A stretch of DNA of 63,054 nt, counting the filler. It is 11 parts of 11 records of this genome, joined end to end, with 100 filler letters (N's around TTAATTAATTAA, not from the genome) between each part and the next. Parts side by side here need not be neighbours in the genome. Positions count along the whole stretch, not along the records: positions 5,810 to 11,115 come from SRR31156797_106518; 10 more parts are not named here. One strand, given 5' to 3'. The notes beneath the pieces were generated by a model. The model did not search any database and was not told the DNA's origin. It saw only the letters and a list, made by a program, of their open reading frames with translations. Made by a program: the position numbers and the translations under genes. Shown here in pieces: positions 1 to 16,189 of this stretch (position 1 is its first letter; each line of letters starts with the position of its first letter).

Positions 1-2346
<2,346 letters not shown>

Positions 2347-3055: not shown

Positions 3056-3541
<486 letters not shown>

Positions 3542-3571
3542 CGGCGGCAGGGATCTGGAGATATTCCGCGA

Positions 3572-5650
3572 ATGGCTCGTTCGACGCCCCTTGATCGTTA
3601 TCGGAACATCGGCATCATGGCTCACATTGATGCCGGCAAGACGACGACGACTGAACGCATCCTTTATTACACCGGTCGCTCCTACAAGATCGGTGAAGTC
3701 CATGACGGCAACGCCGTCATGGACTGGATGGAGCAGGAACAGGAGCGCGGCATTACGATTACGTCGGCCGCCACGACCTGTTCGTGGAAAGACCACCGTA
3801 TCAACATTATCGATACGCCCGGTCACGTTGACTTTACGATCGAAGTTGAACGGTCCCTCCGAGTTCTGGATGGGGCCGTTGCCGTATTCGACAGCGTCGC
3901 CGGCGTCGAGCCGCAATCGGAAACGGTATGGCGTCAGGCCGACCGCTACGAAGTGCCGCGCATCTGCTTCATCAACAAGATGGACCGCACCGGCGCCGAT
4001 TTTTACCGCTGCGTCGATATGATCAGGGATCGCCTGGGTGCCCAGGCAATGGTCGTGCAGATCCCGATCGGGTCGGAAGCCGAATTCGTCGGCGCCGTCG
4101 ATCTGATCGACATGAAGGCGATCATCTGGAAGGAAGAAACCCTCGGCGCCGAATTCACCGTCTCCGACATTCCGGCCGAATTGGCCGATCAGGCGGCCGA
4201 ATGGCGCGAGAAAATGATCGAACTGGCGGTCGAGCAGGACGATGAGGCCATGGAGGCCTACATCGAAGGCACCGAGCCGGACGTCGCAACGATCAAGAAA
4301 TGTATCCGCGCCGGAACCGTTTCCGGCGCCTTCGTGCCGGTTCTGTGCGGCACCGCCTTCAAGAACAAGGGCGTTCAACCGCTGCTTGATGCGGTCGTCG
4401 ATTTCCTGCCGGCGCCGACCGACGTCGGCGTCATCAAGGGCGTCAAGGCCGGCACCGACGAGGTTGTCGAGCGCAAATATTCCGACGACGAACCGTTTGC
4501 CGCGCTTGCCTTCAAGGTGATGAACGATCCCTTCGTCGGGTCGCTTACCTTCGTGCGGATCTATTCGGGCGTTCTGACGTCGGGCCAGCAGGTCCGCAAT
4601 ACGACCAAGGACGCGCGCGAACGCATCGGCCGCATGCTCTTGATGCATTCCAATTCGCGTGAAGACGTCAACGAGGCCCGCGCCGGCGACATTCTCGCCC
4701 TGGCCGGCCTGAAAAGCACGACGACCGGCGACACCCTGTCGGATACGAACAAGCCGGTCGTGCTCGAACAGATGGATTTCCCGGATCCGGTCATCGAAAT
4801 TGCCGTCGAGCCGAAATCGAAGGCGGACCAGGAGCGCATGGGCCAGGCCCTGTCGCGGCTTGCCGCCGAGGATCCGTCCTTCCGGGTCGCATCCGATTCC
4901 GAAAGCGGCCAGACGGTGATCAAGGGGATGGGCGAGCTTCACCTCGAAATCCTCGTCGATCGCATGAAGCGGGAATTCAAGGTCGAGGCAAATATCGGAA
5001 CACCGCAGGTGGCCTATCGCGAGACCATCACCCGCGAAAGCGATATCGACTATACCCACAAGAAGCAGACCGGCGGTTCCGGGCAGTTTGCGCGCGTCAA
5101 GTTCCGGTTCGAGCCGCTGCCGTCGGGATCGGGCTTCGAGTTCGAGAATGCCGTCGTCGGCGGGTCGGTTCCGCGCGAATATATCGCCGGTGTAGAGAAG
5201 GGCCTGAAGGCGGCTTCGGAAACCGGCGTTCTGTGCGGTTTCCCGATGACCGATTTCAAGGCCGTGCTGTATGACGGCGGCTCCCACGACGTCGATTCCA
5301 GCGTCATGGCGTTCGAAATCGCGACCCGCGCCGCGTTCCGCGAGGGTGTGACGAAATCGAAGCCGGTCCTGCTGGAACCGGTGATGCGGGTCGAAGTGGT
5401 GACGCCCGAGGAATACATGGGCGACATCATCGGCGATTTGAGCTCGCGCCGCGGCAACGTTTCGGGGATGGATCAGCGGGCCAACGCCCGTGTCATCACC
5501 GCGGAGGTGCCGCTGGCCAACATGTTCGGGTATGTCAGCACCCTGCGCTCGATGAGCCAGGGGCGGGCCCAGTTCACGATGCATTTTGATCATTATTCAG
5601 AGGTTCCCCAGCAAGTGTCCGAGGAAGTCAGGACACGGCTGGCTGGATAA
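3572..5650 (+). CDS. fusA: elongation factor G
   Basis: [19 protein letters not shown] and NKMD motifs; 692 aa. Confidence 0.99.
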
Positions 5651-5709: not shown

Positions 5710-5809
5710 NNNNNNNNNNNNNNNNNNNNNNNNNNNNNNNNNNNNNNNNNNNNTTAATTAATTAANNNNNNNNNNNNNNNNNNNNNNNNNNNNNNNNNNN
5801 NNNNNNNNN
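5710..5809. other. artificial contig spacer
   Basis: 44 N + TTAATTAATTAA (stops in all six frames) + 44 N. Confidence 0.99.
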
Positions 5810-5813
5810 GACA

Positions 5814-6196
5814 AAGGCCCAAGTACGCAGCGAGGAACCAGCATGCATTCGTCGGGAGAGGGCTGGCAGGAATTACATCTGGGGCACGGACGCACCCAGA
5901 CCACCGGCTCTCTCAGCCCCTTCCGGCCAACGCACTGCTGCTGGACCAGCGACAACCACTATGTGGTCCCTCAGCGAGAAGATCCCAACGCTGAAGCTCG
6001 CGACGTGCAGTTGTTCGGGTTCCGAAAGGCTTGCCTATCGATGACAGTGATGCAGCTAAGTCTTTCGCCTGCAGATGTGCATGAGCTTCCCGCGCCGATG
6101 TTCCGACGGACTTCTCGGACCACAAGCTGAGAACTATTCCTAAGACGGCGAAGAATCGCCCAAGGCCTCCATGTGCTACTATGCAACAGGTCGAAT
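5814..6196 (-). ncRNA. candidate structured leader RNA, copy A (unassigned family)
   Basis: Colinear conserved blocks shared with 9724-10093. Starts at the predicted +1 of promoter 6203-6231. Hairpins at equivalent positions with different sequence. Confidence 0.65.
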
Positions 6197-6202
6197 ACGA
6201 AA

Positions 6203-6231
6203 AGTTTACCATAGACAGAAGCCCCGTTCAA
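6203..6231 (-). promoter_or_regulatory. sigma70-type promoter with extended -10, copy A
   Basis: Minus strand TTGAAC, 17 nt, TAAACT, with TGn just before the -10. Same layout as 10100-10128. Confidence 0.7.
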
Positions 6232-6501
6232 GAAAAAAGCAGCCAGAAAACCATGCGGTTTCCACCGCGTCTTCGAGCCTGAGACCGCCGGGGGCGGGTC
6301 TTTTCGGACCTTTCTGGGGCCCCACGTCCCAGGGGGGGCATGGGGCGTCCCAACAGTTCTTCGGCTTCCTGGCCGCTTCGATCCAGTTCAATGCAGTTGG
6401 ACACGGCAGAAAACATGGGTTTGTCAGGGGGTGGGCAGGGAAACACCTGCGGCGGCAGTGGGTGCGGTTCGACCCGTGGGCCACGTCGAGCGGTGGGGCA
6501 G

Positions 6502-6541
6502 AGAGAAGAATGGGGCCCATACCAAGATGGTATGGGCCCCA
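6502..6541 (-). terminator. intrinsic terminator after the PA14-domain gene
   Basis: 14-bp perfect stem TGGGGCCCATACCA/TGGTATGGGCCCCA followed by TTCTTCTCT on the minus strand, about 40 nt after the stop. Confidence 0.75.
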
Positions 6542-6581
6542 GGAAACTACTGTACAACTGATGCTACGTGTTGCCCTCTCG

Positions 6582-9557
6582 TTACCAGGAGGAGACGCCG
6601 ATCAACTCCACTTCGCCGATCTGCATACTATTGGCAGAGCCCGCGTCCCGAACGGTCGGGAAGAGGACCTGATAGTACATGTAGGCGACCGTGTTATCGA
6701 ACTCAATCGGTGTCGCGTTCATGGTGAAGCGCGGCCAAGCTTCGTCGGCGGCGAAATCAACGATATCGCCGGCGGCAATCAGCTCGTACGGGCCATCGAT
6801 GCTCTCATTCGAGCCATAGACCTCGAAGGAGGCCGGATCACGCTCGACGGCATCATTGGCCGTGGTGAGCGTCAGGCCTGTAACGACAGTGGCCCCGACC
6901 GCAGGTGCGATCTGGACGCCGGTGGGCTCAGTTGCGCCCTTGAAGTGCAGGAACTTGGTACCGGTGTCATTGTCGAGACACAGATCCGGTGTTTCCGCTC
7001 CGGGCCAATCCTCATCGTTGGGAACACCCACGATGAGATCGTCCGGACTGGTGACATCGGCCATCACATTGTGGCTCATCGGCGTACCGACACTGACCGT
7101 CACATTGACCTCACCGCTACCGGCAGCCGGAGCATCCGGGGTACCGGCACCAACGGTGATCTTGGCCACGTTGGTCAGGTCAACACCGGCCAGCTCGGCC
7201 AGCGCGATGTTCCAGTTCTGCGTGGCAACGGCTTGCGTTGCAGCCGCATCGTCGGCGACAACCACGGTACTCTGGCCGGCGGCGTCTTCGATCGCCACAT
7301 ACAGACCAGCAGCATCGTTGCTGGGCATATCCACACCAATGGCTTCCACCATTATGTCACCGGTGATGTCTCCGACCATCGAGATCTCAGACATCTGAAC
7401 GACGACGGTGTTGGCCGCATCGTGACTGGTTACGGCCAGACCGACGAGCACGGGATCAACCATTTCGATCTCGACCGTGCCCTCTTCCAGCCACTCGACA
7501 CCATCAACTGAGATGTAGCCGGTGAAGGTGTTGCCCTCGCGGACCAAACGCGCGTAGTACCCAGGATCGACGTCGACGACGCCTTCCAGTGCACGGTTGC
7601 CGGCCGAGTCGGTGTCTGCTGCAGCGCGCCACTGGAATGTGGCACCGCCACCGTCGCCACCGGTGATGATCGAGTCGGCGTGGATCGAACCGGGCTCGGT
7701 GCTCTGGCGGATCATGAAGCCCGCCTTGGCCCAGGTGTTGGTGACGTTCTCAAGGCTGTCGACGCGAACGACCAGGTCAGCGTCGCCCGTGAGACTCTGG
7801 TATGCATAGCGGAACTGATCCGCGCTGCCCCAGATGTCGGCACCGGAAGCGCCCATCGTGACGACGCCGTCAACCTCGGCAAACCCGACCGGATTGCCCT
7901 GGTAGGACACCCGCAGGGTGTCGGGGGCACTGGCCGTCAGGTCTGCTCCATCCAGAGCCACCTCGAGGGTGTTGCCGGCCTCGCCGTAGACGAGGGTATC
8001 GGCAGCCACGGCGGCGAATTCGGCGGTCGTGAAGGTCCAGACATCGCCTTCCCAGACGTCGACGCCATCGTTCTCATCAACCATCCAGGTGTACGGCATG
8101 CCGTAGACCAGGTCGGCAGCGACACTGCTGCCTTCGACGGTGGCGACCAACTCGCCATTGACGGTGACGTCGCTCGAGACAGCACCGCGGCCGCCGTACC
8201 AATCCAACTCGGTGGCCGGGGCCACACCCGTGGCGCCATCGGCCGGAGCGGTCAGACGAGCCTGCGCCGGGACATAGGAGAACTGAACTTCGCTCAAACC
8301 GGCATCCGGGAACAACCCGCCCCAGTTCGTGTTGGCGGTCAGCTTGACATACTTGGCGCCTACGCCACCGAAATCGACGACCGTATTGGCCGCATACGCT
8401 TCGGCAGCAGGAGCTTGGGCAAACTCGACGTCCGTCAGGACCATCCACGTTTCGCCGTCGACGGAATACTCAACGGTGACGTCCTTGAAGCCATAGCCCA
8501 GGAAGCCTTCGAAGCCGGAGTTGGAGTTCCACACCGTCATGTCGACTACTTTGTAGACGCGGGGGAATTCGTACTGGATCGCAACGGCTTCGCCGGCGGC
8601 CGGAACGCCCAGCCACATGTCCAGCGATTCGGTGGAGTGGCCACCATCAACGAGGCCTGAACCGTCCACGGTCTGCTCTGGTCCGCCCACCGCGTCGCCG
8701 GTTGCGGCATTGCTGGTGGCGATGATACCTTCGACGAGGAACGTCTCGGGCTCGGTCGTGAAACTCCAGAGGAAGCCTTCGGCTCCATCCACATCCACGC
8801 GCCAGTAGTAGGTCGTGTCGGTGGCCAGATCCGCGCCGGCACTGCCCAAGTTGACAGAGTTTTCGACGGTGCCCTCAGCGAGCAACTCCAGAGCGGCCGG
8901 GTCGGTGCCGAGGAGCAGATCGACGATCGCACCTTCCGGGGCCGTCCAACTGATCACGCCATCAATGATGCCCATGGCGCCGTTGGCCGGGGACGGACCG
9001 CTGGCCTTGGTCGGAGCGGTGACTTCGTACTCGGCGACGAACAGCTCGCCGGGGATGACGGTGATCTCTTCGGAACCGGGGGGGGTCCAGCCCCAGTCTT
9101 GACCGTCACCGCCGCCACCTTCCTGCATGATACCGACGAACGCGAGGACCTGGCCCTCGGTCAGCATCATGGGTGCGGACTTCTGGCTTTCGTAGTTGCT
9201 CCATGCCTGGCTGGCTGTCCAACCGTCCACGCGCGCGATCTCCTCGGCGTTGACGGGGTTGTCGTCCATGCTGACATAGAGTCTCTGGTAATCGTCACCG
9301 GCGACGTAGAACGTGTACTCACCTGTTTCAGGAACGGTGAGCCAGCCCGTCATTCTGGCGGTGTAATTGTCGGCGATATCCGCCCAGGTCGGCTCCGCGA
9401 GGACATCTACCTGATCCGCGGGGACCCCGCTCTCAGCGATGGCGATGGCGTCATCGATACTTCCGCCACCGTTCCAAATCTCGCGCAGCACGTCTGCCGA
9501 CGACACCGTCGACAGCGCCATGCAAATTGTTAGCGCTAACAAAGCAAGTTTTCTCAT
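6582..9557 (-). CDS. large secreted acidic protein: PA14 domain, Ig/SusE-like modules, discoidin (F5/8 type C) and lectin-like domains
   Basis: Signal peptide MRKLALLALTICMALSTVSSA. PA14 signature NYTARMTGWLTVPETGEYTFYVAGDD. SPANGA/YYWRVD/GDVWTFTT modules typical of Sedimentisphaerales proteins. Discoidin-like YSVDGETW...AKYVKL...GLSEVQF. 991 aa from ATG 9557. Confidence 0.85.
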   Translation of the reverse strand: MRKLALLALTICMALSTVSSADVLREIWNGGGSIDDAIAIAESGVPADQVDVLAEPTWADIADNYTARMTGWLTVPETGEYTFYVAGDDYQRLYVSMDDNPVNAEEIARVDGWTASQAWSNYESQKSAPMMLTEGQVLAFVGIMQEGGGGDGQDWGWTPPGSEEITVIPGELFVAEYEVTAPTKASGPSPANGAMGIIDGVISWTAPEGAIVDLLLGTDPAALELLAEGTVENSVNLGSAGADLATDTTYYWRVDVDGAEGFLWSFTTEPETFLVEGIIATSNAATGDAVGGPEQTVDGSGLVDGGHSTESLDMWLGVPAAGEAVAIQYEFPRVYKVVDMTVWNSNSGFEGFLGYGFKDVTVEYSVDGETWMVLTDVEFAQAPAAEAYAANTVVDFGGVGAKYVKLTANTNWGGLFPDAGLSEVQFSYVPAQARLTAPADGATGVAPATELDWYGGRGAVSSDVTVNGELVATVEGSSVAADLVYGMPYTWMVDENDGVDVWEGDVWTFTTAEFAAVAADTLVYGEAGNTLEVALDGADLTASAPDTLRVSYQGNPVGFAEVDGVVTMGASGADIWGSADQFRYAYQSLTGDADLVVRVDSLENVTNTWAKAGFMIRQSTEPGSIHADSIITGGDGGGATFQWRAAADTDSAGNRALEGVVDVDPGYYARLVREGNTFTGYISVDGVEWLEEGTVEIEMVDPVLVGLAVTSHDAANTVVVQMSEISMVGDITGDIMVEAIGVDMPSNDAAGLYVAIEDAAGQSTVVVADDAAATQAVATQNWNIALAELAGVDLTNVAKITVGAGTPDAPAAGSGEVNVTVSVGTPMSHNVMADVTSPDDLIVGVPNDEDWPGAETPDLCLDNDTGTKFLHFKGATEPTGVQIAPAVGATVVTGLTLTTANDAVERDPASFEVYGSNESIDGPYELIAAGDIVDFAADEAWPRFTMNATPIEFDNTVAYMYYQVLFPTVRDAGSANSMQIGEVELIGVSSW

Positions 9558-9723
9558 GATACACCCTTTCCGATAATATTTCGGTTGCGTTCCGATTGAC
9601 CGTGCTAGCCTTACCATGCTCTAGCTGAGTGCCACCTCCTTCCTGCCGGTGCCCGTGGGGCTGACCGACATGTCGAACGGAGAACCGCGGCTCTCCGTTC
9701 GGCAGTATCCTCCCTGACCCATC

Positions 9724-10093
9724 AAGGCCCAGATGCACCGCAGACAAGCCATGCGCAGAGGATGAGGGGAAAGATGACCATCGCGGCATTCGCTGACGAC
9801 ATGCCACGGAACACCCACTCTCTCGCACCCTTTCCGTGGAGCTACTGCTTCTGGACCGACAATTTCAGTGTCATCTCTGAGTCGCTGCGTTTGCTTGCCG
9901 GGCTCATAGGAAAGCAACCACTTGCGTCGGAAGACGCCTGCCAGGGTCACAGGCAAAGTCCCTCATCCGCAAGTACTTATGAGCCGGAGGTGATCTTTTC
10001 AAGCACCTTTCTCGGGCGGCAAACTGAAACCACTCCTATGACGGCAATGATGTACCGAAAACCTCCGTGTGACGCAATGTCTACAGGTCGAAT
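9724..10093 (-). ncRNA. candidate structured leader RNA, copy B (unassigned family), in the 5' UTR of the PA14-domain gene
   Basis: Conserved blocks shared with 5814-6196. Begins ATTCGACCTGT 7 nt after the -10 box. No credible coding frame. Confidence 0.65.
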
Positions 10094-10099
10094 GTGTTT

Positions 10100-10128
10100 A
10101 GTTTAGCATAGACATGGCATCTATTCAA
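10100..10128 (-). promoter_or_regulatory. sigma70-type promoter with extended -10, copy B
   Basis: Minus strand TTGAAT, 17 nt, TAAACT, with TGn just before the -10. Confidence 0.7.
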
Positions 10129-10510
10129 GCAGGAAGCAGCCTGATTTCACGACTCGTGGCGAGTTTATTTGCCTGCCGGGGGACGGCTTCTCGGACCTGC
10201 CGACCCGTGGACTCCAGTGATGGCCGGGAAACCCCGGCATTTCCGGCCCCTTCCGGAGTCCACAGCGGCCGATGGCAGGCCCACCGGGCGTCAAGAGAGA
10301 CGCTGGAAAGGGAAGAAACGGCGGATTCGCGTCGGAGTGGCCCACGGGCGGCCGGGCAGCACCGGTCATAACAACGCTGCCGCCCGCGTGCGGTGTCTGC
10401 GGGCTATAGGGTTCCCTCGTCCCCCCGGTTTATGATATGCTGTAAAGGTCGGGTGCCGACATGCCGATTCCAGGGTTCCCGCCCAGAAGAACACGGTCAT
10501 GCCGACACCC

Positions 10511-11115
10511 CTAACGTGGAGCTTGGATGTCGATGGGCCGGGCGTAGACGCGCTGCCCATCGTCGTTGTCCATTGTGATGTTTCCGCCAATCCCGGGTAC
10601 TGCCGCATGCGCCGGGTCCGATGGTTCCTCAGGAGATGCGATTTCATCAAGCGGCGGCGCCCGCCAGATATGGGCGGTCCCCGTGGCATTGATCGCCACG
10701 AGCAGGGTGCCGTCGGGTGAGAACTGCAGATGATCTCTAATGAAGCCTTCGCCTTCCAGCGTGGCGACCTCGTGCCTGGTTGCCACGTCCCAGAGTTTGA
10801 CGGCTTCGTCTCTCTGGCTGGCGGAGGCGAGACGCTGGCCATCCGGTGAGAAGGCCACGGCGTGCACCCCGTTGAGATGGCCACGCAATTGGTCCACGAC
10901 GTTCCGTCGCGCGATATCCCACAGGGTCACGGTGCCTTCGGCCGATGCGGTCGCCAGGACCGTCCCATCCGGCGTGAACGCCATGCCCGAGATCCCCCAG
11001 CTTTCTTCGATTCCTTCCGCCGTCTCCATGTCACCTGTGCGAAGATCGACAAAGTGTACGCGTCCCTCCGATCCGCCCATGACCAGAAAACGCTCATTGG
11101 GAGAGAGAATAGGCT
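10511..11115 (-). CDS. WD40-repeat protein, C-terminal part (5' truncated)
   Basis: Repeats AFTPDGTVLATASAEGTVTLWD, GHLNGVHAVAFSPDGQRLASAS...VKLWD and FSPDGTLLV...HIW. Confidence 0.85.
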
Positions 11116-12472: not shown

Positions 12473-14659
12473 ATGGACAACACATCACTGACCACGGGCG
12501 GCTTCACCCTGCCCGGCGAAGCGGGCTACGAAGAACTGACGCTGCGTCTGGCCAAGACGTGGGGCGCCGATGTGATTCGAGACAGCGATGGCACTCAGCT
12601 CTCCGACCAAATCTACACGTCGGGTTATGACATCTATTCCACCGTCTGTGTGATTCGCGCGGACAACGAATGGGCCAAGGCCAATCCGGACAAGCTCCAG
12701 CAATGCTGCCTGATGAGCGAGCCGGTTCTAGCCGAAGGTGATAGCGTCACTATCGAGTTGCTGAAGGGCTATTTCACCGAGCAGTTCCGCATCAACAGCG
12801 ACGACGATCCACAGCAGTGGTGGCAGGTCTTCGACCGAACGGCAGACCGGCAGGTGCCTGCTACCGATTGGTCGTTCGATGAGGCGACCGGGTCGGTCAC
12901 GGTCCGAAACACGAAGCCCTGGCACAGCTACACGGTGAATTTCTTCTCCTATCGCATCTGGGAGGAGATTTCCATGTACAACCATGTCACCAACGACTGG
13001 GGCGACCGCGAACACCTCATGCCGATCGAGCCCATGCATCCGGAAGCCCAGGAACAGATCCTGGCGTATCTGGAACAATGGCTGCGCGACCACCCCAACA
13101 CCAGCGTCGTCCGGCTGACCTCGCTGTTCTACAATTTCTGGTGGTTCTGGGGCGACCCGCAGAAGCAGCGGTTCATCGTCAACGACTGGGGCTCCTACGA
13201 ATTCTCCGTAACCCCCGTCGCCATCCGCAAGTTCGAGACCAAGTACGGCTACCGCCCCACCTCGGAGGATTTCGTCAATGCGGGGCTCTACAACACCTCC
13301 CACAAGGTCCCCTCGAAGACCTACCGCGACTGGATGGACTTCATCAATGAGTTCGTGATCGATTTCGGCCGCCAGTGCGTGGACCTGATTCACGCGCACG
13401 GCAAGCAGGCCTTCGTCTTCTACAACGACCACTGGGTCGGCATGGAGCCCTACAGCAAGCGGTTCAAAGACCTCAACCTCGACGGGATCATCGACGGCAT
13501 CTTCAGCGGGTTCGAAGCGCGCAAGGTCGCCAACACGCCCCACGTCAAGGTCAAAGAACTCCGAATGCACCCGTACCTCTTCCCAACCGGCGTCAACGGT
13601 GCGCCGTCGTTCCTGCCGGGCGGTAACCCCACGCTGGAATGCAAGACCTACTGGCTGGATATCCGCCGGGCTTTGTTGCGGGAAGGTGTCGATCGCATCG
13701 GGTTTGGCGGCTACCTGCATCTGGTCGAGAATCATCCGGACTTCGTTGACTACATCGTTCATATGACCGAAGAGTTCCGGCAACTCCGCAGCCTGCACGA
13801 GAACGACGCGCCCTATGCCCCCGAGTTCAAGGTGGCCATCCTCAGCGCCTGGGGCAAGATGCGGGCCTGGGGCTGTTGCGGCCATTACAATCATGGCAAC
13901 TTCTACAACGAGGTCATGGAATCCGTCTCAGGGCTCCCGTTGCACGTCGAGTTCATCAGTTTCGAAGACCTCCGCACCGGCGGCATCCCCAGCGACGTCA
14001 GAGTGATCATCAATGCGGGCGTCGCAGACACCTCCTGGTGCGGGGGTGAACACTGGGCCGATGAGAAGATCATCGAAGCCATCTCGCAATTCGTACACAG
14101 CGGCGGCGGCTTCATCGGCGTGGGTGAACCGACCGCGCTGAAGCATAGCAGCCTCTATTTCCAACTCGCTCACATTCTGGGTGTGGATCGCGAACTGGGA
14201 CTGACCAAGGCGTTCAACCGCCTGTCCTTTGATTCCGTCGGAGCGGGCCATTTCATCATGAGGGATGCAGAAGTCGCATTGGACTTCGGCCCGGACACCG
14301 GCAACATCTACATCCTGGATGACCAGACGGAGGTCCTGGCCGCTAGGGGCGAAAGCCCCACGGTCACCACGAGATCGTTTGGACAAGGCCGAAGCGTGTA
14401 TCTGTCGGGCCACGAATTCACGCCGGAGAATGTTCGCCTGCTCCATCGGGCCATTTTCTTTGCGGCCCAGGCCGAAGCGCAGTTTGAAACGTATCTTTGC
14501 AGCAACGTCCACACCGAATGCGCGTACTATCCGAATCATCGCAAGCTGGCGGTGATCAACAACACCGATCAGCCTCAAAAGACCCGGATAACCGCAGAGA
14601 AGGACGAAACGCTGACCGCCAGCCTGGAACCGTATGGCGTGCAGATCATAGACGTGTAG
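12473..14659 (+). CDS. GH112 beta-galactoside phosphorylase (1,3-beta-galactosyl-N-acetylhexosamine / galactosyl-rhamnose phosphorylase family)
   Basis: FTLPGEAG...WGADVIRDSDGT, RIWEEISMYNHVTNDW, catalytic-region FYNDHWVGMEP, IDGIFSG, ELRMHPYLFP; 728 aa. Confidence 0.92.
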   Translation: MDNTSLTTGGFTLPGEAGYEELTLRLAKTWGADVIRDSDGTQLSDQIYTSGYDIYSTVCVIRADNEWAKANPDKLQQCCLMSEPVLAEGDSVTIELLKGYFTEQFRINSDDDPQQWWQVFDRTADRQVPATDWSFDEATGSVTVRNTKPWHSYTVNFFSYRIWEEISMYNHVTNDWGDREHLMPIEPMHPEAQEQILAYLEQWLRDHPNTSVVRLTSLFYNFWWFWGDPQKQRFIVNDWGSYEFSVTPVAIRKFETKYGYRPTSEDFVNAGLYNTSHKVPSKTYRDWMDFINEFVIDFGRQCVDLIHAHGKQAFVFYNDHWVGMEPYSKRFKDLNLDGIIDGIFSGFEARKVANTPHVKVKELRMHPYLFPTGVNGAPSFLPGGNPTLECKTYWLDIRRALLREGVDRIGFGGYLHLVENHPDFVDYIVHMTEEFRQLRSLHENDAPYAPEFKVAILSAWGKMRAWGCCGHYNHGNFYNEVMESVSGLPLHVEFISFEDLRTGGIPSDVRVIINAGVADTSWCGGEHWADEKIIEAISQFVHSGGGFIGVGEPTALKHSSLYFQLAHILGVDRELGLTKAFNRLSFDSVGAGHFIMRDAEVALDFGPDTGNIYILDDQTEVLAARGESPTVTTRSFGQGRSVYLSGHEFTPENVRLLHRAIFFAAQAEAQFETYLCSNVHTECAYYPNHRKLAVINNTDQPQKTRITAEKDETLTASLEPYGVQIIDV

Positions 14660-14704
14660 CGTGCTCGTACAGACCCGTTCAGTCCCATTGAGGAACGATG
14701 CCCC

Positions 14705-16189
14705 ATGGAACCCAACGCCAACACCGCATCTGACGTCACGCCGTCCCATGCTCCCGCGGGAAGACTGTCAGTCTTCGAAAAGGTCGGATTCGGCCTGGGA
14801 GACACCGCCTCCAACATCATGTACCAGGCCTGGAGTTTCTTCCTGGCCAAGTTCTACACCGACGTCTTTGGCATCTCGACCAAGCATGCGGCCACGATGT
14901 TCCTCGTGACGCGCGTCTGGGACATGATCAACGACCCCGTCATGGGCATGATTGCCGACCGCACCAATACGCGCTGGGGAAGGTTCCGCCCCTACCTGCT
15001 CTGGATTCCCATCCCCTACGGCCTGCTGATCTACTGCATGTTCGTCACGCCGGAATGGGGACAGAATGCCAAGTTGATTTATGCGTATGCCACCTACATC
15101 CTGGCCACGATGGCCTATACGGCGGTCAACATCCCCTACTCGTCGCTGATGGCCGTGATGACGCCGGACCCGAAAGAACGCACCACGCTCTCGCAGTACC
15201 GGTTCTTCTGCGCCTTCATCGGCATGTTGATGATTACCACCTTCATGCTGCCTTTGGTGAAGCTGCTCGGCGCCGACCCCAACCACTCAGGCTTCGACAG
15301 CAATCTGGGATACAGCCAGGCATTGGGCTACCAGAGAACCATGGGCGTCTTTGGGCTCATCGCGATCGGGCTTTTCATGATTACCTTCCTGACCACTCGG
15401 GAACGCGTCGTGCCCGCGAAGACTCAGAAGGGGTCCTTCGGCCAGGACCTCACCGATGTCTTCCGCAACATCCCCTGGATCGTCCTGTTCACAGCCTGCA
15501 TCTTCTGGCTGACGCACAACATGATCCGCAACGGCGCGATCGCCTACTACTTCGATTACGTCAGCAGCAGTGGCAACGAGACCATGTTCACCTTGCCCCT
15601 CTTCAAATTGGACTTTGACCGAACGACCACGTTCCTGACGATCGGTACGTTCGGCATGATGGCCGGCGTCTTTCTCAGCACACCCTGCAAGAAGCATCTG
15701 GGCAAGAAGGCGGCCAGCATCATCCTGGCCCTGGCTGGGGCGGTGGTCGGCGCCGCCTTCTACTGGTTGCCGCCGGACAACTTCGTGGCGTTGGGGGTCA
15801 TGAATTTCCTCTGGTCCATCATCGCCGGCGCCACGCCCGTGTTCCTGTTCGCCATGTTCACCGATGTCACGGACTTTCACGAGTGGAAGTTCGGGCGACG
15901 CGCGACGGGGCTGGTCATTGCCGGCATCATGTTCGCCATCAAGATGGGCGTCGCCCTCGGCGGCTTCCTGATTCTAAAGCTCCTGGGCCACTTCGGCTAT
16001 GTCGCCAATCAGGCCCAGACCCCGGAGGCCATCCAAGGGATCACCCTGCTGCTCAGTTTGATCCCGGCCGCCTTTATCCTGGTCTGTGCGATCCTGCTGT
16101 GTCTCTATCCGATCAGTGAAAAGATGCTGGTCACGATCGAGACCGATTTGCAGGCGCGCAAAGATGCCACCGGCCCGCCGGAGGCATAA
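14705..16189 (+). CDS. glycoside-pentoside-hexuronide (GPH) family MFS symporter
   Basis: EKVGFGLGDTASN, DMINDPVMGMIADRTNTRWGRFRPY, NIPYSSL; about 12 hydrophobic segments. Confidence 0.93.
   Translation: MEPNANTASDVTPSHAPAGRLSVFEKVGFGLGDTASNIMYQAWSFFLAKFYTDVFGISTKHAATMFLVTRVWDMINDPVMGMIADRTNTRWGRFRPYLLWIPIPYGLLIYCMFVTPEWGQNAKLIYAYATYILATMAYTAVNIPYSSLMAVMTPDPKERTTLSQYRFFCAFIGMLMITTFMLPLVKLLGADPNHSGFDSNLGYSQALGYQRTMGVFGLIAIGLFMITFLTTRERVVPAKTQKGSFGQDLTDVFRNIPWIVLFTACIFWLTHNMIRNGAIAYYFDYVSSSGNETMFTLPLFKLDFDRTTTFLTIGTFGMMAGVFLSTPCKKHLGKKAASIILALAGAVVGAAFYWLPPDNFVALGVMNFLWSIIAGATPVFLFAMFTDVTDFHEWKFGRRATGLVIAGIMFAIKMGVALGGFLILKLLGHFGYVANQAQTPEAIQGITLLLSLIPAAFILVCAILLCLYPISEKMLVTIETDLQARKDATGPPEA

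Follow-up and report, generated by a model that had tools for sequence, protein, structure and literature searches.

The DNA analysed here is a stretch of 63,054 nucleotides (nt), below called the window, which is made up of 11 unrelated contigs. The element under study, a candidate 5' leader RNA present in two copies named A and B, lies on the second contig (5810-11115), with both copies on the minus strand (Table 1). Along that strand the contig carries a WD40-repeat gene fragment, a promoter-like site, leader B, gene B, a terminator-like hairpin, a further promoter-like site and leader A, which runs into the contig end. A 33-kb contig of the likely source run includes the whole of 5810-11115 with its letters unchanged and extends past 5810. 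About 650 nt beyond that position it carries a paralogous PA14-like piece, with 36 differences over 148 nt, which identifies genes A and B as tandem paralogs.

Two leader copies and a third homolog

The two promoter-like sites have the same layout, TTGAAy, 17 nt, TGn and TAAACT. Their TTGAAy/TAAACT hexamers match the sigma-70 consensus at 8 of 12 positions, which is under the threshold of the promoter scan. We infer promoter function for these sites, with the RNA of copy B starting at about 10093, approximately 7 nt after TAAACT. The word GGCTGCTT is conserved a few bases upstream of the -35 hexamer at both sites (10131-10140 and 6234-6243, minus strand), and could represent an UP element or a site for an activator. 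Owing to the terminator-like hairpin that follows gene B, copy A is expected to have its own transcript start. A second terminator-like hairpin, of 5 pairs, is found between gene B and promoter A (6255-6268, minus strand).

Both leaders begin with AUUCGACCUGU, and about 390 nt can be aligned between A and B at 52% identity, gap columns being counted as mismatches. The matching columns are clustered in blocks, as 82 of them fall in runs of at least 5, compared with 42.6 ± 11.9 for randomly placed matches (P=0.0006). A third homolog, 81% identical to A, was found at the metagenome locus L016; it is without the first ~100 nt and reaches the ATG. Between B and L016, 102 columns fall in runs of at least 5, compared with 46.3 at random (P below 0.0002), while the substitutions between A and L016 are spread evenly along the leader. 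Conservation between B and L016 extends 165 nt past the end point of the original prediction, an earlier by-eye reading of stems in copies A and B, and continues to the first nine codons (MRKLALLAL). On the way it takes in, in order, GGUCAGGGAGG, a first hairpin, GGAAGGAGGU, a second hairpin (CCGA/UCGG) and the Shine-Dalgarno (SD) region. In addition, leader A has a 359-nt variant in a seawater run, with 21 differences. The module is real, and its three copies B, A and L016 are homologous.

Homologs were searched for with a 20-base pattern from the leader, and candidates were checked by blastn. Among metagenome contigs, one of the 11 stretches retrieved was a true homolog (L016), and among contigs of species-representative genomes none of the 5 stretches was. 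Four pattern or protein scans and one alignment scan of viral contigs found no leader homolog. Two of these scans gave no match at all, another gave 68 pattern matches and no relatives, and the single distant paralog locus detected in viral contigs (L023) is without leader-like DNA. Six further viral-contig matches (L017-L022, from IMG/VR) were rejected as chance matches to a two-word pattern in an unrelated phage gene; the matches cover the same 87-nt span in all six, and the three stretches that were read are letter-identical. The plasmid collection gave no match, and nhmmer with a three-sequence profile, run over the window and all loci, returned nothing beyond the three known copies.

The proteins behind the leaders are built differently. 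About 580 residues of the gene B product have no Pfam match. The protein behind L016 (L016 23-1738, minus strand) contains an Ig-like domain, a LamG-like domain and a dockerin-like tail, and this difference in architecture indicates that the leader travels as a module with different genes. Only one domain is common to the two proteins, and its place differs between them (B residues 555-714 versus L016 residues 33-191, 50% identity). Judged by their domain content, the proteins constitute a putative domain-shuffled family of secreted lectin-like proteins.

Table 1. Coordinates of the features at the leader locus, in window positions.
Feature	Position	Strand	Description
Promoter-like site of copy B	10100-10128	-	TTGAAT (10128-10123), 17-nt spacer, TGC + TAAACT (10105-10100)
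Leader B	9558-10093	-	~536 nt, from inferred start AUUCGACCUGU to the base before ATG
Hairpin H1 (predicted)	10065-10087	-	B 7-15 with 21-29; lower stem conserved, top 3 bp differ
Hairpin H2 (predicted)	10042-10057	-	B 37-41 with 48-52; CGGUA..UGCCG (B), GGCGA..UCGCC (A)
Domain 2 (D2, predicted)	9898-9987	-	B 107-196, long irregular hairpin; closed by GGCUCAUA/UAUGAGCC (B), GAAGCUC/GAGCUUC (A)
Domain 3 (D3, predicted)	9726-9857	-	B 237-368, long irregular hairpin; closed by GGUCCAGA/UCUGGGCC
Purine word	9826-9836	-	CGGAAAGGGUG; exact 11-nt copy of the ribosome-binding region 9562-9572, direct repeat, spacing 264
Distal hairpin after GAGAGAG (predicted)	9782-9808	-	CGUGGCAU..AUGCCGCG (B), UCUGGG..CCCAGA (A)
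Pyrimidine (CU) tract	9754-9781	-	predicted pairing with GAGAGAG and the purine word
Strong hairpin (predicted)	9671-9704	-	12-17 bp, B 394-421; outside the region of the original prediction, inside the leader
Pre-SD hairpin, SD region and ATG	9555-9585	-	CCGA/UCGG, GGAAAGGGUG, ATG; conserved with L016 through the first 9 codons
Gene B	6582-9557	-	991-aa secreted protein; signal peptide, PA14 and F5/8 type C (discoidin) domains
Terminator-like hairpin after gene B	6511-6541	-	14 pairs, then T-rich tail
Promoter-like site of copy A	6203-6231	-	TTGAAC, 17 nt, TGG + TAAACT
Leader A	5810-6196	-	first 387 nt; cut by contig end

Predicted helices and their placement

Positions in leader B are converted to window coordinates by subtracting them from 10094. 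All stems that the original prediction had listed by eye can be read in the minus-strand RNA, including those of GAGAG with the CU tract and of GCUCA with UGGGC. The 3-bp stem that it had placed after ACCUGU is present, but is merely the tip of the 8-bp bulged hairpin H1, in which the lower stem CCUG/CA..GG is conserved and the top 3 bp read GAC/GUC in B and UGC/GCA in A. In the ensemble comparison described below, the sum of weights of H1 is 5.1, and its stability corresponds to p=0.056 in B and p=0.17 in A. Hairpin H2 is stable in both copies (z=-3.4, p=0.023 in B; z=-3.1, p=0.013 in A). Between the copies, one of its pairs differs on both sides, being A-U in one and G-C in the other, and a further pair differs on a single side. 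The stem that was read after CCGAGAA, AGGUG/CACCU in B and GUCG/CGGC in A, is likewise found in both, with no more than ordinary stability (p=0.12 in B, p=0.55 in A).

Further downstream, two long irregular hairpin domains are predicted. Domain 2 contains three inner helices that B shares with A and with L016 by ensemble overlap, while column-wise alifold gave no signal for this domain. Domain 3 contains the CU tract and the distal hairpin together with purine words, and is closed by the helix GGUCCAG(R)/(Y)YUGGGCC, of 7-8 bp in all three sequences, in which the eighth pair, A-U in B and G-C in L016, is mismatched in A. This closing helix takes the place of a long-range helix of GCUCA with UGGGC, which had been thought to close a domain of over 200 nt. 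The 5-bp pairing is probably wrong, as UGGGCC pairs better with GGUCCAG and GCUC is instead predicted to pair locally with GAGC, which closes a domain of roughly 90 nt. The words CCAGMAGCAGU and CGGAA, which had been taken as unpaired, are predicted to be paired inside domain 3, so that this assignment is probably mistaken as well. For the distal hairpin, stability differs among the copies (B p=0.12, A p=0.05, L016 p=0.68). The CU-tract helices of B are predicted at B 258-268/330-340 and 270-283/313-325, and their equivalents in A and L016 were read by eye. Finally, the strong hairpin at 9671-9704 has 17-nt arms with 88% complementarity (z=-5.8); it is without a U tail and is not terminator-like. 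L016 has a hairpin in the same place with a lower stem of other sequence, and the sum of weights is 11.8. In these models H1, H2, the two long irregular hairpin domains and the hairpin at 9671-9704 are the best-supported elements.

The variable arms of the helices are misaligned between the copies; the 3' arm of one domain-2 helix, for example, is 10 nt closer to its partner in B than in A. Column-wise methods can therefore miss shared helices, and hence the structural ensembles were compared directly. The base-pair probability matrix of A was mapped onto B via the alignment, for each B pair the best A pair within t nt was taken (t=3, 6 or 10), and the score was the maximised nested sum of sqrt(pq). 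For B and A, the observed overlap at the three settings was 30.7, 47.3 and 68.4. Block-preserving shuffles gave 16.5 ± 7.1, 25.2 ± 8.5 and 35.1 ± 9.8, and 3, 2 and 0 of the 93 shuffles reached the observed values; none of 38 circularly shifted maps did so at any t. The overlap between B and L016 (41.2, 61.4 and 69.6, compared with 17.1, 28.1 and 39.7 in shuffles) was likewise reached by 0 of 63 shuffles at each t and by 0 of 38 shifted maps, and the sharpness of the ensembles in this comparison was no different from the null. Moreover, RNAalifold on a triple alignment of domain 3 gave z=-2.8 (2/200), with 4/400 in the energy test, and the 40 predicted pairs of the consensus are formed in 89.8% of the cells. 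The 52 substitutions between A and L016 break 15 of the predicted pairs compared with 22.9 at random (P=0.005), and in the reverse direction 11 are broken compared with 19.3 (P=0.0025). Taken together, these model-based comparisons lend moderate statistical support to a placement of helices that is shared beyond chance.

In other tests the excess over chance is absent or weak. Single leaders fold no better than ordinary dinucleotide-shuffled sequence (z=-0.54 and -0.12). Consensus folding against shuffled controls, the check on which the original prediction had staked its helices, came out for A and B no better than the shuffles: RNAalifold on the MAFFT alignment gave -52.5 kcal/mol compared with -51.0 ± 5.7 in column shuffles (z=-0.27; 38/100 shuffles as good), and the z values by domain were +0.51, -1.05 and -0.94. 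Re-alignment guided by pairing profiles yielded a structure conservation index of 0.34, compared with 0.33 ± 0.04 in shuffled pairs (30/77) on which the whole re-alignment pipeline had been run too. We also programmed the by-eye search, accepting stems of at least 4 bp with both arms within ± 8 nt of the equivalent place as a greedy nested set, and shuffled columns between the conserved blocks for its null. For B and A it returned 13 shared stems of weight 169, compared with 11.5 stems and 149 ± 13 in shuffles (10/150). Stems of differing sequence scored 153 for B and A (143 ± 15 in shuffles; 40/150) and 167 for B and L016 (167 in shuffles; 53/100). Since these scores lie near those of the shuffles, equivalent stems of different sequence are what chance would give. 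The original claim of helices at equivalent places with changing sequence is thus divided, being borne out by the shift-tolerant ensemble test and not by column-wise consensus folding.

The ensemble statistic has weaknesses of its own. It is home-made, follows no published method and is uncalibrated on known RNAs; the best shifted maps come near the B-A values at two of the settings (29.2 versus 30.7 and 43.6 versus 47.3), with a maximum of 62.2 at t=10, and part of the B-A signal comes from purine/pyrimidine pairing, which is possible in many registers. At the nucleotide level, the triple alignment of domain 3 has 10 compensatory pairs by RNAalifold, compared with 6.7 ± 2.0 in shuffles (35/400), and double compensatory changes between A and L016 number 2 against 1.5 expected. 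The sequences are three in all, and two of them, A and L016, are close relatives. The original prediction cautioned that two sequences cannot establish covariation; with three, the compensatory pairs are no commoner than RNAalifold finds in shuffles, and covariation is unproven.

The ribosome-binding region and competing explanations

The direct repeat of the ribosome-binding region in leader B is hardly expected by chance, the probability of such an 11-nt copy of the pre-ATG window in B being about 0.002. By eye, each of the two corresponding words in L016 is complementary at 10 of 11 positions to the CU tract of that leader. Together with the SD region, the purine word and the CU tract suggest a decoy/anti-SD/SD arrangement. 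Difficulties for this arrangement are that the exact SD copy occurs in B alone, the likeness in L016 extending to 9 of 12 positions (P=0.78 for exact words); that the predicted partner of the SD of B is the H2 region (p=0.96), not the CU tract; and that the CU tract ranks only 5th in B and 2nd in L016 as duplex partner of the SD window. The SD of B and that of L016 are predicted to pair with different regions. Perfect 9-bp complements between domain 2 and the CU tract, one in B and two in L016, were discarded, as by our estimate about 0.6 are expected by chance for each and none is conserved. A leader of the CsrA/RsmA type also found no support: GGA is not enriched (12 occurrences versus 11.2 expected in B, 8 versus 6.5 in A and 14 versus 9.6 in L016) and is not among the significantly conserved 3-mers.

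We think it somewhat probable, on balance, that the conserved DNA specifies a long (~535 nt) cis-regulatory, non-coding 5' leader, and that promoter, leader, ribosome-binding site and the first codons of the signal peptide form one module placed before differently built secreted carbohydrate-binding proteins. The leader status and the transcript start are deduced from the DNA letters, and the leader is probably structured and cis-regulatory. Its RNA would fold into a chain of H1, H2, D2, D3, the strong hairpin and the small SD-adjacent hairpin, and would act in cis at the post-transcriptional level, either on translation initiation or on mRNA stability. With low certainty, we surmise that the pyrimidine tract of D3 might normally be held by the purine words that resemble the ribosome-binding region, and that a factor or condition altering D3 might then free or occlude the real ribosome-binding site. 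A more ambitious version seems rather doubtful to us, namely that the leader represents a new class of large multi-domain leader RNA which in Phycisphaerae marks a regulon of secreted surface proteins that bind glycans, and works as a ribosome-binding-site decoy switch of translation via a dedicated RNA-binding protein or a glycan-derived ligand.

The most serious alternative dispenses with a specific RNA fold. Promoter, untranslated region and gene would have been duplicated in tandem, would have diverged and would have been joined to other genes by recombination. The conserved blocks would then serve as DNA operators or as plain sequence signals such as promoter, ribosome-binding site and standby sites, and any two GC-rich sequences would yield matching stems of this kind. 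Consensus folding at chance level, the 11.5 shared stems that the programmed search finds in shuffles next to 13 observed, the 6.7 compensatory pairs in shuffled triple alignments next to 10, the tandem paralogy of genes A and B and the even spread of the A-L016 substitutions all agree with it. Nevertheless, the ensemble overlap exceeds two kinds of controls in two comparisons, the A-L016 substitutions spare predicted pairs, and the leader accompanies proteins of different architecture; in addition, it would be unusual for conserved operator DNA to extend over 535 bp downstream of a promoter. We therefore regard this explanation as possible and yet unlikely. A ligand-sensing riboswitch, in which a large aptamer (D1-D3) responding to a glycan breakdown product or a second messenger would control the ribosome-binding site, is improbable. 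Its short conserved words between variable helices, its size and multi-domain layout and the duplicated SD-like word in B would suit such an RNA, but none of the 4227 families of Rfam 15 matches anywhere in the window at the gathering score, and of the 3 weak matches on the second contig at E up to 10 none lies in either leader. Moreover, no terminator-like site occurs inside either leader on the minus strand, so that neither has the hairpin plus U run of an attenuator or a terminator-like expression platform; no SD-sequestering helix is common to B and L016; and the genes under control, coding for lectin-like secreted proteins, offer no obvious ligand logic.

Two further explanations concern the extent and the coding status of the element. 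That it is a free-standing non-coding RNA gene of ~370 nt, running from the start to UGGGCC, with the protein gene downstream having a promoter of its own, is very improbable: the region of the original prediction does end at UGGGCC, where domain 3 closes, but there is no terminator after domain 3, the conservation between B and L016 is unbroken to the ATG, and no second promoter near the gene is conserved. A sigma-54 or other second promoter close to the ATG was considered and rejected, as the sigma-54-like TGGCAC of B is absent in L016 and none is conserved between the two. Least credible of all, and hardly worth entertaining, is a small protein or upstream open reading frame (ORF) within the leader on either strand. 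Stop-free stretches in B do reach 113 codons in the sense and 161 in the antisense direction; against this, none of the six frames shows translated similarity of B to A or L016, the similarity between A and L016 is equal across frames and switches frame at 1-nt indels, and no conserved start codons follow the SD-like words. The indels between B and A measure 1, 1, 7, 2, 3, 5 and 1, 1, 3, 1 nt. All three leaders are non-coding.

Host lineage and comparison with known systems

The joints in the window consist of 44 N, TTAATTAATTAA and 44 N, with the first spacer at 5710-5809 and others at nine more places. The GC content of the 11 contigs ranges from 36% to 61%, and their tetranucleotide profiles differ. 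As the joints link unrelated contigs, readings that connect features across the spacers are invalid, such as that of leader A with the ORF at 3074-5593, which is ruled out as the gene of copy A because it sits on another contig. The host was approached through the gene B product, which has some 30 full-length relatives in metagenomes, at 60-82% identity, and is 66% identical to its ortholog in Anaerobaca lacustris, a species that also has several paralogs; other named matches are from Phycisphaerales, Sedimentisphaerales and Planctomycetota metagenome-assembled genomes. By these relatives the host is a Phycisphaerae planctomycete, and we assign the leaders to an uncultured marine lineage of this class (Planctomycetota). 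The first contig carries the C-terminal part of RpoC (window 148-2346, plus strand), 83% identical to that of Shumkonia mesophila (Rhodospirillales). It was rejected as a guide to the host of the leaders, since it belongs to Rhodospirillales and its contig is unrelated to the second one by GC content and tetranucleotides. The third contig encodes a lacto-N-biose phosphorylase followed by an MFS sugar transporter (window 12473-16189, plus strand); its tetranucleotide profile correlates with that of the second contig at 0.87, and it may come from the same organism.

In sediments and seawater, Phycisphaerae contribute greatly to the breakdown of polysaccharides, and to our knowledge almost nothing is known of the regulation of their very large sets of secreted lectin-like proteins and enzymes. 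A leader of more than 500 nt that is common to genes of different architecture would give a handle on this regulation, and would be a candidate new family of regulatory RNA that Rfam does not contain. In the literature on structured RNA, intergenic regions, transcription starts and untranslated regions of Planctomycetes, and on Sedimentisphaerales discoidin proteins, we found no such leader. The comparisons also carry two points of method, in that column-wise consensus folding can miss shared architecture in diverged long leaders, and that matching stems by eye yields nearly as much in shuffled sequence.

Among known systems, the large structured RNAs OLE, GOLLD, HEARO, ROOL and raiA are all in Rfam, are free-standing and show strong covariation. 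The Phycisphaerae leader resembles them in measuring several hundred nucleotides and having several domains, whereas it is joined to a coding region, has an ordinary folding energy and matches no Rfam family. With riboswitches and the cis-regulatory leaders of Rfam it has in common the location between promoter and start codon and the alternation of conserved words with variable helices; unlike them, it has no Rfam match, no terminator platform and no established covariation. The Rhodopirellula-1 motif is listed as a cis-regulatory candidate of Proteobacteria and Planctomycetes, with no Rfam number (Weinberg et al. 2010, PMC2864571, Table 1), and by this entry the likeness is that both are candidate cis-regulatory elements in Planctomycetes. 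We conclude that the leader fits no described family among those tested, and that it would work like other long bacterial 5' leaders. Long cis-acting leaders of mRNAs for surface or secreted proteins include the 5' untranslated region of E. coli ompA with its stabiliser hairpins and the pgaA leader. The Phycisphaerae leader is two to four times longer than these, has no sequence relation to them and belongs to another phylum. The likeness is in the layout, with hairpins and purine-rich words before genes for exported proteins, and in the presumed action on the ribosome-binding region or on mRNA stability.

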